A stretch of 64,000 nucleotides of DNA from positions 45,074,001 to 45,138,000 of the forward strand of contig OZ024753.1 of assembly GCA_964016885.1 (NCBI GenBank). The letters are read 5' to 3'. Below the pieces are notes generated by a model that saw only the letters and a program-made list of their open reading frames with translations, ran no database searches and was not told where the DNA came from. The translations under genes were made by a program, and so were the position numbers. The stretch's first letter is position 1; each line of letters begins with the position of its first letter. Positions 3,537-56,258 of this stretch are shown piece by piece. The DNA comes from Eledone cirrhosa (Eukaryota).

Positions 3537-3952
3537 GTGTATATGAAGGTATATATCGATATATTTATGTTTAATAAACATATGAGAGTCTTGCTATAAA
3601 TATTTTAAACCATGATCATGTCCCAGTATCTCAGTGGCCATGAAAGAATGTCAGACATGTTTATAACATAGGCTGGAAATCCTCATTTGCATATAATACA
3701 GTGTATGCAAATGAACTTAACCAGCTGATATTTCATATGCCAAAATAGCATATAATCTATAGCTTATTCTTATTTCAGTACCGAGTGAGTATCGCTGATG
3801 ATGTACAAATATCCTGAAATACATATTTCACATTCTCACTTGGCTACTGAGATAGTTGTGACATGATCACAGCTTCAAATATTTATAACAAGACTTTTGT
3901 ATGTTTAATATATATGAATATATAAATAAACTGCATATGCCTTTATATATAC
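3537..3952. repeat. Old, diverged fold-back element with a hammerhead remnant (CTGATGA 3795, GAAA 3816)
   Basis: 3559-3660 pairs with 3821-3923 in essentially one register. Homologous partial copy at 36658-36852. Confidence 0.8.
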
Positions 3953-4253
3953 ATACATACATACATACATACATATATATATATATATATATATATATAT
4001 ATATATATATATATATATATATATATATATATATATATATATATATATATATATATATATATATATAATGAAATATTGTGTACAGTGCTCAGGTGCACCA
4101 CAACTCATCAAAAAGTGTATGTATAGTACATAGGGTAATGCACAAATGTCAGGAAAATGAACAGTGCATGAGTCATGCTCTATATATAGTGGTAGAACAC
4201 TGGAAGGTAATATCCGTAGTGGTAGAGCACTCAGTCCATGGGACGAGTTAGGG

Positions 4254-4443
4254 TAGAAGTGGTTACACAACAGTTAGTTCACCATACCGAGAACAATTGT
4301 TTCACCTTAGCGGATCCTCAGCTCGGAATGGAGATGGTTATACGGATTATTCCGTATAACCATGTCCATTACAAGCTGAGCATCCGCTAAGGTGAAACAA
4401 TTGTTCTCGGTATGGTGAACTAACTGTTGTGTAACCACTTCTA
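4254..4443. repeat. Fold-back (93-bp arms, 4-nt loop) containing a hammerhead; Penelope-type pLTR relic
   Basis: Arms 4254-4346 / 4351-4443, about 4 mismatches. Confidence 0.9.
4287..4326 (-). ncRNA. Minimal type-I hammerhead ribozyme (Penelope-type)
   Basis: ccgag CUGAGGA u cc-gcuaa-gg u GAAA caauug UU cucgg: 5-bp stem I, self-complementary stem III ACAAUUGU. Confidence 0.75.
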
Positions 4444-4604
4444 TATATATATATATATATATATATAGATATATATAGATATATATCTATATATATATAT
4501 ATATATATATATATATATATATATATATATATATATACGTTATTCCGGGTTGAATCGGAGGTAACCACAGTAAGTAAGGTACTCAATACATTGCAGAGTA
4601 TAAA

Positions 4605-4731
4605 AGTTTTAATATAGATGAGATTCTACAGGACTAGAACTGTTTCATTCTTTAGAAATCATCAGGAATCCTGATGATTTCTAAAGAATGAAACAGTTCT
4701 AGTCCTGTAGAATCTCATCTATATTAAAACT
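4605..4731. repeat. Perfect palindrome (63-bp arms, 1-nt centre) turning at a CTGATGA core
   Basis: Centre 4668 in atcaggaatcctgat. The same family at 34834-34943 turns at the same motif. Confidence 0.92.
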
Positions 4732-5111
4732 ATATATATAAATTAACTAAAAACTACGTTTGTTCAGAGCTTTCTCTCGCTAACTCCTGTTTTTACCAAA
4801 ACAATCTCTTCTGAACAAATTGAAGGATAAGTATTTAACCTTAAGTTTATTCTGAGTTAAGACTCAATTGGTTTTTTCCCTGGATTTCACAAAATCTGTG
4901 GATAAAATTTCTGTCTTGACTTTTTTTGAATTAAGATTGAATTATTTTCCCATATCTTACGTTAAATATTTTCCATCTTGACGTTATAGTCACTTATATA
5001 TTATGGAATACTGTTGGCTTCTTGCTCACATTAATTTCTCTATTTTCATTTATATATATATATATATATATATAATATAAGATCAAAAGATGGTTAAAGG
5101 AGTTCCATGTA

Positions 5112-5178
5112 TTTTATTATGCGCATTTCAAAAACAAACATCATCAAGCAATAATATTTGTGTTTTCATCAGATAAAA
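5112..5178 (-). ncRNA. Hammerhead ribozyme with long stem II
   Basis: uuuuau CUGAUGA [aaacacaaauauuauu-gc-uugaugauguuuguuuuu] GAAA ugcgca UA auaaaa; palindromic stem III AUGCGCAU. Confidence 0.8.
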
Positions 5179-5329
5179 CAGGAGAACATGATATGAAGGC
5201 TAAAAAACACTTGTGGATAGTGCAGTTTTAAATCAACATATATATAAATCAACATATATATAAATCAACATATATATATATATAGTGACGAAACATAAGT
5301 CAATTGCATGAACTCATAATCCTTTATTT

Positions 5330-5385
5330 ACTGCTATATATATTTCGATGATGGCCATTGAATGGCTATGACCTCATCAGGCAGT
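5330..5385 (-). ncRNA. Hammerhead ribozyme
   Basis: acugc CUGAUGA ggucauagccauucaauggccaucauc GAAA uauaua UA gcagu; stem I acugc/gcagu. Confidence 0.8.
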
Positions 5386-53046: not shown

Positions 53047-53599
53047 GTTTCTATCTACCTCTCTATCTATTTGCATGTCTATCTCTTTATCTACCTCTAT
53101 GTCTATCTATTTATATATCTATCTCTCAACCTATCTATTTATTTGTATGTCTATCTCTCTATCTACCTACCTCAATATATATCTATTTATTTGTATGCCT
53201 ATCTCTCTATCTCTCTACCTCAATATCTATCCATCCATCTATCAGTATATTTGCATGTCTCCCCCTCTCTATATATGTATGTATTTATATATGTATGTGT
53301 GTATGTATATATGTATGTTCGTATGTATGTATGTATGTATGTATGTATGTATATATGTATGTTCGTGTCTATATCTGTATGTGTGTATGTATATATGTAT
53401 GTATGTATGTATGTATACATATGTAGAAATATATGTAAGTATGATGTGGACTCAGCTTGAGTATTGACAGCATCTGTAACAACCCATCCAACCCTTACTA
53501 GTATGAAAAATAGATGTATGACGATGATGATGATTAATTCTTCCATCCCGAACTAAACAGTGAAAAAAACAGACAATTCTCCTCATCCTGTTTTCCCCC

Positions 53600-53950
53600 A
53601 AGTACATACCTGCGTCCCCCAGAAGCTGACAACATAACTGTGTCCCAGAAGCTAACTGACAACGTACCTATGTCCCCCAGAAGCTTACAACAAACCTGTG
53701 TCCCCACAGAAGCTGACAACATACCTGTCCCCCTCAGAAGCTAAATAACATACCTGTGTCCCCTCAGAAGCTAACTGACAACATACCTGTCCCCCCCAGA
53801 AGCTAAATAACAACATACCTGTCCCCCTCAGAAGCTAAATAACAACATACCTGTATCCCCTCAGAAGCTAAATAACAACATACCTGTATCCCCTCAGAAG
53901 CTAAATAACAACATACCTGTATCCCCTCAGAAGCTAAATAACAACATACC
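53600..53950 (+). repeat. About 32-bp intronic minisatellite (cagaagctaaataacaacatacctgtatcccct)
   Basis: About 11 units just upstream of the exon 7 acceptor. Confidence 0.92.
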
Positions 53951-53970
53951 TCTGTTTGTGTCTTTTACAG

Positions 53971-54100
53971 ATGATGAAAGTGATCAACTCTACTTTGTGG
54001 CCTGCAGTGGCAGTAAGATATGGACAGTTGTTAAAGATGTTACAGTGACTCAGATCAAACTGGATCTACTCCAACTAGAATTGGTGACACCTTACAGCAA
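53971..54100 (+). CDS. DTHD1: DTHD1-like exon 7 (DESDQLYFV...W..VKDV...TPYS)
   Basis: ttttacAG / GTAATG, 130 nt, phase 1 to 2, open frame. Confidence 0.85.
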
Positions 54101-54321
54101 GTAATGTACCACCAAGACGAACACTTTCTCTCTCTCTGTCTATATATATATATATATATATGTATCTATGTATATGTATGTATGTATACACAGATTTGGT
54201 GGGATTTAGTAATACTTTCTTTTTATGCAACAGAAATAACAATTCAGTAATGTTGTGTTTGATTTAATAAAGATATTTTTTAACTCCTCAGTGAATTCCT
54301 TGTTTTTCCCCCTCTCTTTAG

Positions 54322-54435
54322 ATTCCTGGTTCTCCGTACAAGAGTAACGGTAGATGAGGAACATGTAGTTATGATGGCCACAGAAATAGAGAAATATCTT
54401 AGCAAACGACTGGTTCAGGTGATTGTTAAACAGAG
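54322..54435 (+). CDS. DTHD1: DTHD1-like exon 8 (FLVLRTRVTVDEEHVVMMATEIEKYLSKRLVQVIVKQ)
   Basis: ctctttAG / GTGAGT, 114 nt, phase 2 to 2. Confidence 0.88.
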
Positions 54436-54757
54436 GTGAGTAAATTATATACATGTGGTAGAGAGTGTATATAAATTATATACATGTGGTAAAGAGTGTA
54501 TATAAATTATAGACATATGGTAGAGAGTGTGTATAAATTATAAACATGTGATAAATATTATATATATATATATATGTGTGTTGTGAAGGTGCGTGGCTTA
54601 GTGATTAGAGAATTGGATTTGCAACTGTAAAATTGTAAGTTCGATTCCCAGACCAGGCGATGTGTTGTGTCCTTGATCAAGAAACTTTATTTTATGTTGT
54701 TCCTTCTGTCAGGATTTACAATGAAACTGCGTTAATATACACACTTTCTATTTCTAG

Positions 54758-55187
54758 TATGTGGGACCCCCTACAAGTAACTCTTCACATGGTCCCAGTA
54801 AGTAAAACCCTGTTCACGGTCAATAAACTAAAGGAATTAGATTACATGAATGGTTCAGAAAGTTCTCCAGTTATTAGTGTTAATGAAGGGCAACTGATGA
54901 AGATCAGCTTCCGTGGAAATCTAAAGAACACAACACCGGAGAGTAACCATTTCATATACAATTCCAACCTGCAGTCTTCGATTGACTTCACAATTCTTGA
55001 AGTGGACAAATATCTTCAGAAGAACTTCCCAGTTTTCCGAGGATTCATCAGACTTTTCAGGAGTAACTTGCTACTTTCAGGTGTGAAAAAGAAAGTAAAA
55101 CCAGAAGATGAAAACCAGGAATTGTCTGAGATAGAACCAGAAGCTAGCCTAGAATTACTTACTGAGATTCTGCTCACCATTCCCAAA
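54758..55187 (+). CDS. DTHD1: DTHD1-like exon 9, UPA-like domain (MWDPLQV...EGQLMKISFRGNL...EILLTIPK)
   Basis: tttctAG / GTAAGC, 430 nt. EGQ..x.F.GN and the terminal L.IPK are UPA-type motifs. Confidence 0.9.
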
Positions 55188-56258
55188 GTAAGCAAAATAT
55201 TAAACAGACATTCCGCAGTGTGTGTGTGTGTACATGTGTATGCAGCATGTTTATAAACATATATATGGATTTTCACACAAACAACCACAAGAATACACAC
55301 TTACATTTACATGCACGCACACATACAAACAAGACATTAGAGTCATTTCCCTTTATATAAGGGACATTACTCTAAAACATGCCATGATGTTATCTGGGCT
55401 AAATTATAATAATAATAATAATGAAATTATTGTGTACAGTGCTCAGAAGGGAATAAGACATAGTTATAACTGGAATAACAATTGATATATTTATACAGCA
55501 TCTATTGGCGTATAAGTCGCCCCTCCATTTTACATACAATATTTATAATGTACTGGTGGTAAGTGACGGGGCGTTGAACTCACAATCGTAAGCTTATTTG
55601 TTCGAATCTCGGACTGAGTGGTGCATTGTGTTCTTGAGCAAGACACTTTATTTCACATTGTTCCAGTTCACTCAACTATAGAAATGAATTGTGCTGTCAC
55701 GGGTGCCAAGCTGTACGCCCCTTTGCCTTGGACAACATCATATATAGTATATGTATGTGTGTATATATATATATATCCTCACTTTTCGTTGCTTCACCAT
55801 CTTTGTTTGTTTACACTCGTGTCCCAACGACTTTTTTTAGCCGTTGCTCGCATCAACCGGAGGTATATGGTCTTTAAAGCGATGAAATACCAATGATGGT
55901 TGGAAGATCACTGATGAAGGACCAACTTTATTTATATATATATATATATATACTAGTCCCCCCACCCTACACTCTCAAACGTGAACCTAATACTAACATT
56001 TTGTATTGCACTCTTCGCTTTGTTTTAACTATTATATACGTATGTGTATATATATATATATATATACGTATATATATATATATATATATATATATACACA
56101 TATATATATATATACACATATATATATATACACATTTTGTGCCAAAAGTAAAAACAATATATATTTTATTGATGGCAGACGATCTCTCTCTCTCTCTCTC
56201 TCTCTAGTGTGTTATATATTGTTTCTACTCTTGGCACAAGGCCAGCAATTACCTAGTA

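Follow-up and report, generated by a model that had tools for sequence, protein, structure and literature searches.

What are the short elements without an open reading frame (ORF) that fold back on themselves beside hammerhead ribozyme motifs in the (TA)n microsatellites of the octopus Eledone cirrhosa, and how does an inverted copy come to stand beside a forward one? The question is raised by a 64-kb stretch of contig OZ024753.1 (positions 45,074,001 to 45,138,000, forward strand; hereafter the window, with coordinates counted from its first letter). Our answer is that the elements are probably pieces of the pseudo-long terminal repeats (pLTRs) of endonuclease-bearing Penelope-like elements (PLEs), mostly of the Hydra clade, set head to head in (TA)n, and that their likely origin is the priming of cDNA by each of the two nicked target strands, at two fixed start sites, with both cDNAs running to the 5′ end of the RNA before the two are joined. 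The reading of two joined cDNAs is favoured by the presence of two 3′ ends in each family, by a rule of one tail per pair, by subfamily tags shared between the arms, by diverse junctions and by a hard upstream edge at the turn.

The elements fall into families, labelled A to H, and the earlier note was right that many families share one plan. Families A to E each have two 3′ ends, 57-88 nt apart and both ending in TA-like bases; an arm that reaches the long end carries a tail which an arm finishing at the short end lacks. Among 189 adjacent pairs of arms (no more than 700 bp apart), 160 were oriented head to head, 17 tail to tail and 12 in tandem, and TA-like sequence followed 387 of 469 precise ends, which bears out both the head-to-head orientation and the (TA)n targeting proposed before; a target-site duplication is unreadable inside (TA)n. 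Exactly one tail was present in 220 of 229 head-to-head pairs and two tails in none. After exclusion of 26 pairs chosen by one junction, one tail was found in 194 of 203 pairs and two tails in 0, against the 46.3 expected if the arms were independent. Subfamily tags were common to both arms in 24/26 family A pairs (shuffle mean 7.5, maximum 16) and 33/44 family D pairs (8.7, maximum 17), while the same test did not discriminate in family C (15/16 against 15.0 shuffled) and its pattern fitted no pair in family E. Junctions were of 30 kinds among 49 unbiased family A sites, and the four commonest had no fixed tail side and no single loop II tag, which argues that junctions form anew each time; a fixed palindromic master was dropped after the unbiased pattern searches. 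Microhomology overlaps occurred at 55 of 166 short junctions. An inverted 5′-truncated copy adjoins the 5′ end, as in endonuclease-positive PLEs, and sizes form a continuous series from ~100 bp to ORF-bearing fold-backs of 6.7 kb; the ORF-less elements (hereafter minis) can be taken as extreme truncations, as had been suggested.

The strongest competitor is snap-back copying, in which the 3′ end of a single cDNA primes the second arm on itself and the product is resolved at a second fixed site. It would account for tags common to both arms and for the microhomology, and the one-tail rule is also expected from it if copying always halts at the short end. Under snap-back, however, the tailed cDNA must be the arm that extends further in the 5′ direction, and the longer arm at the turn was the tailed one about as often as the untailed one in families D (31:25), E (9:9), C (12:13) and B (4:6); the 41:22 ratio of family A is inflated by selected copies. 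A rule that the tailed arm is always longer was ruled out by these near-even counts. Several junctions, moreover, have both arms at the same edge with filler between them. Snap-back would work solely if either arm can come first, and we regard it as unlikely.

Simple repeats occupy one third of the window, and fold-backs were sought in it by masked self-comparison (arm at least 30 bp, identity at least 78%, loop at most 300). Ten were found in the window and 32 in the surrounding 264 kb, compared with 0 and 0 in two 130-kb shuffles; the resulting density of one per 6-8 kb is lower than the one hairpin per ~5 kb that had been claimed. Eight of 13 element starts listed earlier are genuine fold-backs (3537, 4254, 4605, 17419, 33834, 43494, 44410 and 51931) and of the other five, four or all are not hairpins: at 34834 and 38483 the symmetry is limited to 11-17 bp (at 38483 a ~17-bp inverted match, read by eye), and at 11948, 36658 and 37592 an inverted tail piece stands beside a forward arm without overlap (also read by eye). 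Most elements also reach further than their listed starts, owing to a one-sided 57-88 nt tail that had been overlooked. The members of the system in the window are as follows (core, hammerhead core; strand given where one was assigned; signed positions count from the first core base).

3575-3907: family G fold-back, old and degenerate (87 bp at 79%), whose 160-nt loop contains a decayed core at 3795.
4187-4443: family E fold-back; tailed arm on the minus strand (tail 4187-4253), untailed arm on the plus strand; core 4321 (minus); minimal hammerhead with palindromic loop III.
4536-4731: family A fold-back with its arms at 4605-4731 and turn at 4668, preceded by a 69-nt tail (4536-4604); type I hammerhead cores 4665 (minus) and 4671 (plus).
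5112-5183, minus strand: unpaired type I hammerhead, core 5172; 8-bp stem I and palindromic loop III.
5330-5385, minus strand: unpaired type I hammerhead, core 5380.
5452-5595, minus strand: family D, single tailed arm beginning at hammerhead position +41, directly at (TA)n.
11948-12117: family C pieces without a hairpin; antisense tail fragment, (TA)n(GA)n split, untailed forward arm 12052-12117.
17419-17598: family F fold-back with arms at 17419-17544, continued on one side as far as about 17598.
33777-34415: family B fold-back; 57-nt left tail, ~290-bp arms, turn 34122-34127 at a AAGATGGCG-type motif.
34833-34943: family A subfamily copy; minus arm partly tailed, second arm of ~11 nt.
36660-36858: family G copy; inverted downstream piece and forward arm without overlap, core 36805.
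37594-37749: family C without a hairpin; inverted tail alone, then untailed forward arm from -3.
38488-38700: family H, weak member; core 38557, short inverted match only.
43493-43667: family C fold-back; left tail, ~37-bp arms.
43844-43879, minus strand: unpaired minimal hammerhead, core 43875.
44410-44608: family D fold-back; 79-nt left tail, turn 44548 within hammerhead loop II, catalytic core absent.
51062-51120, minus strand: unpaired hammerhead, core 51116.
51931-52142: family C fold-back; 88-nt right tail.

A further degenerate fold-back at 33290-33568 (78%, 96-bp arms) lies beside (TA)n without a CUGANGA core and may be an old member of another family. In the tails of families A, D, E and F (for instance 4575-4590 and 17560-17572) we also noticed a common motif, (A)YTGARTRCY, 17-22 nt past the short end, a candidate binding site for the reverse transcriptase (RT) and endonuclease protein.

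Within the window a relaxed type I hammerhead descriptor gave six matches, where 100 shuffles averaged 0.02 with a maximum of 1, and the four unpaired hammerheads of the list (cores 5172, 5380, 43875 and 51116, all on the minus strand), noticed before, all match it. This descriptor misses family E, in which stem II has 2 bp; a stricter early one missed families A and E, owing to an unpaired base in stem II. The CUGANGA core that was said to lie at or near the start of the forward segment is canonical in families A, B and E, absent at 44410 and non-canonical in family C (37592, 43494 and 51931), where CAGAAGA stands in 54 of 56 copies; a CTGAAGA at 11962 sits in an antisense tail and does not belong to a ribozyme core. 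The family D core reads UUGANAA in 10 of 13 intact copies, and its U3-A8 variant is one described by Cervera and de la Pena (2014, PMC4209133). Stem I covaries between family A subfamilies (GATTC/GAATC versus GCTTC/GAAGC), which suggests that the hammerhead motif is under selection. In the Rfam scan of the window, the 150 matches listed out of 317 included no hammerhead, and none was returned for two short stretches; elsewhere in the genome RF00163 gave 18 matches among 74 scored candidates. The best Rfam matches to the palindromes were miRNA models.

Where, then, does the turn lie? Taking the first core base as position 0, we found that the 5′ end of the longer arm falls in -7..+1 in 25 of 31 family A cases, in +37..+50 in 63 of 68 family D cases (18 at +43 and 12 at +39), in -34..+4 in 16 of 18 family E cases and in -5..0 in 10 of the 15 short family C cases, 10 more being long. 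Loop II of family D (~37 nt) holds TATTTAAA and TCAGT/TTAGT, and the turn is the A of that motif, 29 nt past a TATA-like box; since it lies inside loop II, the family D minis keep only the 3′ half of the ribozyme. The family A edge coincides with the A in CCAGATT, located 30 nt past TATAAATA, and this A is also the first base of stem I. The distance from TATA-like box to edge is thus 29-30 nt in both A and D, and the edge base in families A, C and D is the A within YYAG(T/A)Y. The TCAGT of family D resembles an initiator, and we presumptively labelled the edge motifs YY1, NRF1 and initiator (Inr). In the main A subfamily the genomic CC before the edge was seen only in copies intact to -11 or beyond. 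Copying of the cap by the RT would add a G at the end of an arm. By hand count, the non-genomic bases before the D edge were 7 G versus 1 A (binomial 0.035), and 8 of 50 D junctions read GGACT-C-AGAA, whose C fits neither genomic allele and requires a C opposite the cap. The nine unexplained bases before the A edge comprised 5 G, 2 A and 2 T (hand count; two of the G copies share a junction). The excess of extra G at the D edge is weak. The promoter of D. virilis Penelope lies within the pLTR according to the literature. From these motifs we consider that the turn likely marks the start of the RNA and not a ribozyme cut. In several family D junctions (L165/L166, L169, L280, L286 and L329) long T/A runs stand at the turn, as if the RT had slipped on a U-run at the template's 5′ terminus.

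The earlier note had proposed a breakpoint linked to the ribozyme, and the hammerhead could set it through self-cleavage or by stalling the RT. The edge does lie at or just 5′ of stem I in families A, C and E, and the covariation of stem I points to a motif under selection. Yet of 389 tailed arms found in tail-seeded searches, only 7 have their start 3 nt or less from the predicted cleavage site (1/112 in A, 5/140 in D, 1/33 in E, 0/60 in C and 0/44 in B), and the cleavage version is largely refuted; this set includes motif-selected loci, and where starts pile up, at D +107 and B +221, the alignment probably stops in related subfamilies. An RT arriving from the 3′ side crosses the entire ribozyme in A, and the 3′ strand of stem II in D, before it stops, and the D turn lies within loop II with the core removed. 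Catalytic mutants, furthermore, left insertion in vitro unchanged (Frangieh 2024, PMC11167929). A breakpoint set by the hammerhead is hence improbable, and we attach equally little probability to a second explanation of the edge, namely that it is a 3′ splice site and that the templates were spliced RNAs or splice intermediates. A YAG preceded by a pyrimidine run is found at the edge in A, C and D, and the intron of D. virilis Penelope ends at helix I (Cervera and de la Pena 2014, PMC4209133). The arms, however, include the AG and often more genomic bases upstream, no recurrent first exon or leader was seen in 49 A and 50 D junctions read by eye, and the B and E edges are without such an acceptor.

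The pLTR origin itself was examined through genome-wide searches of the 3.0-Gb assembly. Exact family motifs were counted 27,663 times for A, 25,513 for C, 21,315 for D, 3,276 for E, 1,765 for B and 401 for F (a 28-mer in the case of F); the counts are of arms and not insertions, miss diverged copies, and gave 0 with all reversed-pattern controls. Fold-back junctions with a gap of up to 15 nt numbered 4,755 for A (control 1) and 11,213 for D (control 0). The palindromes thus occur at many thousands of genomic sites. Origin from PLE pLTRs, which the earlier note had proposed, held for families A to E, in each of which a single ORF with RT and GIY-YIG is linked to the pLTR repeat, the parents being organised as pLTR-ORF-pLTR. 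Extension of the families led from A, C, D and E to Hydra-clade-like frames, and from B to another PLE with a C-terminal endonuclease. In the family A parent L121 a pLTR starting 11-12 nt before the core is followed by the tail, which runs into a 758-aa frame, by a long microsatellite-rich 3′ region and by a second pLTR. The tail continues into the ORF start in families A and C; in A only 67 copies of the tail joined to the ORF start were found. Locus L111 is a 6.7-kb head-to-head copy of family A with the GIY-YIG region at its centre. Within it, at 1400-3480 and 4850-6780, ~2 kb of (TG/TA) microsatellite belongs to the A 3′ region; it moves together with the element and is a possible seed for new targets.

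Marks of the Hydra clade are an RWK-like motif, DKT, a CxCx5C linker, CxxC and CxH near the end and the lack of CCHH (Craig et al. 2021, PMC8557442). The family A frame carries RWR, DKT, YRDD, CxCx5C, YIG, CxLC and CxH; family C frames carry RWR, DKT, CxCx5C and CxLC; family E frames DKT, CxCx5C and CxLC; and family D frames CxCx5C and CxLC, the N-terminus being missing from the loci examined. Compared by eye, the family A frame also resembles published Hydra-1_Obim alignment rows. On these motifs and this alignment, families A, C, D and E would be assigned to the Hydra clade. Pfam gave GIY-YIG at E 0.019 for the A frame, which did not pass the cut-off, and no match to RVT_1; some of its language-model neighbours carry GIY-YIG/RVT_1, and a PDB sequence search gave no relevant match. 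Among 20 long head-to-head regions of families B to E, 12 match a PLE protein and 8 do not. Hydra-like frames lie within the arms or loop in 5/7 regions of C, 3/5 of D and 2/2 of E, and a fourth D region has a Neptune-like match outside the arms. Loci L295, L296 and L212/L213 are family E parents with a Hydra-like ORF. The family B arms enclose RT and GIY-YIG frames of another clade (L290, L293), broken, in which a CX2-5CxxC-type linker and a YIG motif are visible by comparison with Neptune/Nematis-type PLEs. The B parent also has an asparagine-rich stretch before the RT (L290 3196-4161, L293 2017-2877), as in the N-rich inserts described in Adineta Penelope. Neptune-type ORFs recovered by a GIY-YIG search were tried as parents; they showed no link to the window families and matched the Hydra frame poorly. 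One Neptune-type family (L105, L106) has its own hammerhead ~370 nt past the stop, and it too occurs as a head-to-head pair, extended at one end.

A self-propagating, retrozyme-like non-autonomous class that copies the palindrome as a unit, the other possibility raised in the earlier note, fares worse. One junction recurred at 100% identity in 38 of 40 scored matches to a junction-bearing query, and ORF-joined A pLTRs are rare beside the A motif matches. Against such a class speak the variety of A junctions described above, with either tail side and different tags among the commonest four, the tandem arrangement of just 12 of 189 neighbouring arms, the D minis devoid of a catalytic core and the unbroken size series; we hold it to be very improbable. 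We give next to negligible probability to assembly artefacts or to miniature inverted-repeat (MITE-like) DNA transposons bounded by fixed terminal inverted repeats. The elements are indeed short, palindromic, TA-flanked and high in copy number, and raw short-read coverage drops at the palindrome centre. Transposon identity is nevertheless refuted by asymmetric ends, variable centres and long forms reaching 6.7 kb with PLE ORFs inside, and in contigs of an independent public run the turn is bridged, with 31 or more bases on each side, for family A (4624-4706, 82 nt) and for family F (17429-17516). That support is at the level of the family and not of the locus, and reads over 17200-17790 miss the unique flank of the family F copy.

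The reading of two joined cDNAs can be laid out as a sequence of steps. A GIY-YIG endonuclease would nick both strands of the (TA)n target, and the RT would start internally on the RNA, for one target strand at the tail end and for its partner at the short end; these two starts may be the sites mapped in vitro for an anole PLE. As template, either a single RNA copied a second time under strand displacement or a pair of sister RNAs would serve. Use of the promoter-proximal start sites would yield cDNAs of 60-140 nt in families A, C, D and E, that is, the minis, and use of the sites in the distal pLTR would give the long series. The cDNA 3′ ends would then anneal through 0-8 nt of microhomology or be joined with a few extra bases. 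The minis, devoid of an upstream promoter, would be dead ends, and the hammerhead would lie near the turn since it is placed at or across the putative transcription start, not as the maker of the break.

Several points weigh against this model or its placement of the RNA start. Junction sequence by itself cannot tell two joined cDNAs from snap-back copying, and the same YAG at the edge may act in splicing as an acceptor. Motifs and DNA ends are the sole basis for the putative transcription start, and turn coordinates, based on one reference per family, are shifted by a few bases in other subfamilies. The C edge, the A of TTAGT, has no TATA at -30; the few B edges, around the AAGATGGCG motif, and the E edges, behind a GCGCATGCGC motif, are dispersed. 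By hand count, a genomic T or C precedes +43 in 20 of 28 unambiguous D arms, which implies that many templates began a few bases earlier, and in separately fetched D loci the G excess was 10 versus 5 and mostly ambiguous. Of 14 truncated ORF-bearing A 5′ pLTRs, four start at -33 to -12, upstream of the proposed start (30 of 67 were examined, and 16 extend further upstream). Finally, no parent ORF could be tied to families F, G and H or to the unpaired hammerheads; a check for ORFs near these pieces in the fetched loci was blank for F, G and H and gave unproven neighbours for the others.

Comparison with known systems separates what is new from what is not. In LINE-1 twin priming, two target nicks prime two cDNAs and give an inversion joined by microhomology; its pieces do not overlap and its second site is random, whereas the present elements use two fixed sites and their two arms are copies of one and the same segment. 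The PLE kind, head-to-head pLTRs, tails, the hammerhead and (TA)n targeting are already published. Hydra-clade PLEs, including Hydra-1_Obim, share with the present families the C-terminal GIY-YIG, the RW(K/R), DKT and CxCx5C linker motifs, the pLTR hammerhead, (TA)n targeting, 5′ truncation, the inverted 5′-truncated copy and the one-sided tail (Craig et al. 2021, PMC8557442). The present families differ from those described there in tails of 66-88 nt versus 30-40 nt, in a 3′ region of up to ~2.7 kb and in the predominance of ORF-less head-to-head minis among the copies; a search of that paper's supplement for six family motifs gave no match, though line breaks could hide them. The same authors name the origin of tandem and inverted PLE structures and of the tail as an open problem. 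In Penelope of Adineta vaga the inverted pLTR likewise overlaps the direct one, with junction palindromes and an optional tail, and a TATA and an Inr-like motif are noted in the pLTR (Arkhipova et al. 2013, PMC3846280); that account concerns few copies and invokes self-priming, the idea behind snap-back copying, on antisense RNA, and its available text links no turn to an RNA start and gives no one-tail statistics. The protein of the anole PLE PAc Poseidon cuts and extends both strands of AT-rich DNA in vitro, is predicted to be a dimer, uses uncleaved RNA as template and has two internal RT start sites that bracket the tail (Frangieh 2024, PMC11167929). The tail-bracketing starts and AT-rich target are as proposed here, though the clade is different and inverted products are not addressed in the accessible part of the paper. 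Dual minimal hammerheads of Schistosoma, on opposite strands 100-700 bp apart, with palindromic loop III and ascribed to truncated PLEs, resemble our elements as well, but the available text mentions them briefly, without anatomy or mechanism (Cervera and de la Pena 2014, PMC4209133). Non-LTR retrozymes are also ORF-less and PLE-pLTR-derived, with a type I hammerhead (Li et al. 2026, 10.64898/2026.07.22.740005), yet they are head-to-tail tandems, whereas the present elements are head to head, formed anew and often with half a ribozyme. In the literature searched, subscription papers and Repbase lying outside the search, nothing described mass production of ORF-less head-to-head pLTR minis, a one-tail rule or a turn equal to the RNA start. 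What is new here, as far as that literature goes, is the scale and three quantitative rules: one tail, a turn that avoids the cleavage site, and diverse junctions.

The window holds other features besides. An apparently intact long interspersed nuclear element (LINE) lies on the minus strand (23973-26936), its open frame of 987 aa containing an APE endonuclease, an RT and a PHD finger. Exon-like open host-gene frames lie at 54639-57360 (plus) and 59565-63194 (minus), with no Pfam match at E 0.01 as single pieces. An abundant dispersed repeat, often beside (TA)n and in some cases as inverted pairs, occupies 1793-1895, 7283-7473, 11827-11950, 20405-20732, 22066-22397, 30137-30318, 56258-56907 and 63653-63812. 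Two tandem arrays are young: 9817-11053 (72 bp x17, 97%) and 1-1016 (24 bp x42, 96%).

Taken together, the fixed anatomy of long end, short end and turn likely records how PLEs integrate. The one-tail rule, the finding that either arm may be the longer and the sharp turn are constraints from within a genome that link the two-start result obtained in vitro in 2024 to inverted insertions, and young intact Hydra elements such as L121 are identified as test material. The results argue that the hammerhead is a bystander in truncation, and palindromes of this kind would likely be mis-annotated as MITEs or miRNA precursors. More tentatively, and at somewhat less than even chances in our judgement, head-to-head twin priming may be the normal integration route of microsatellite-targeting PLEs. 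Each insertion would then consist of one tailed and one untailed cDNA united end to end, and initiation next to the cap would give duds of a 'strong-stop' kind hundreds of times oftener than full copies. Tens of thousands of such snapshots would map PLE starts through the cap-copied G and would seed long intronic hairpins, possibly a major substrate for double-stranded RNA formation and editing.

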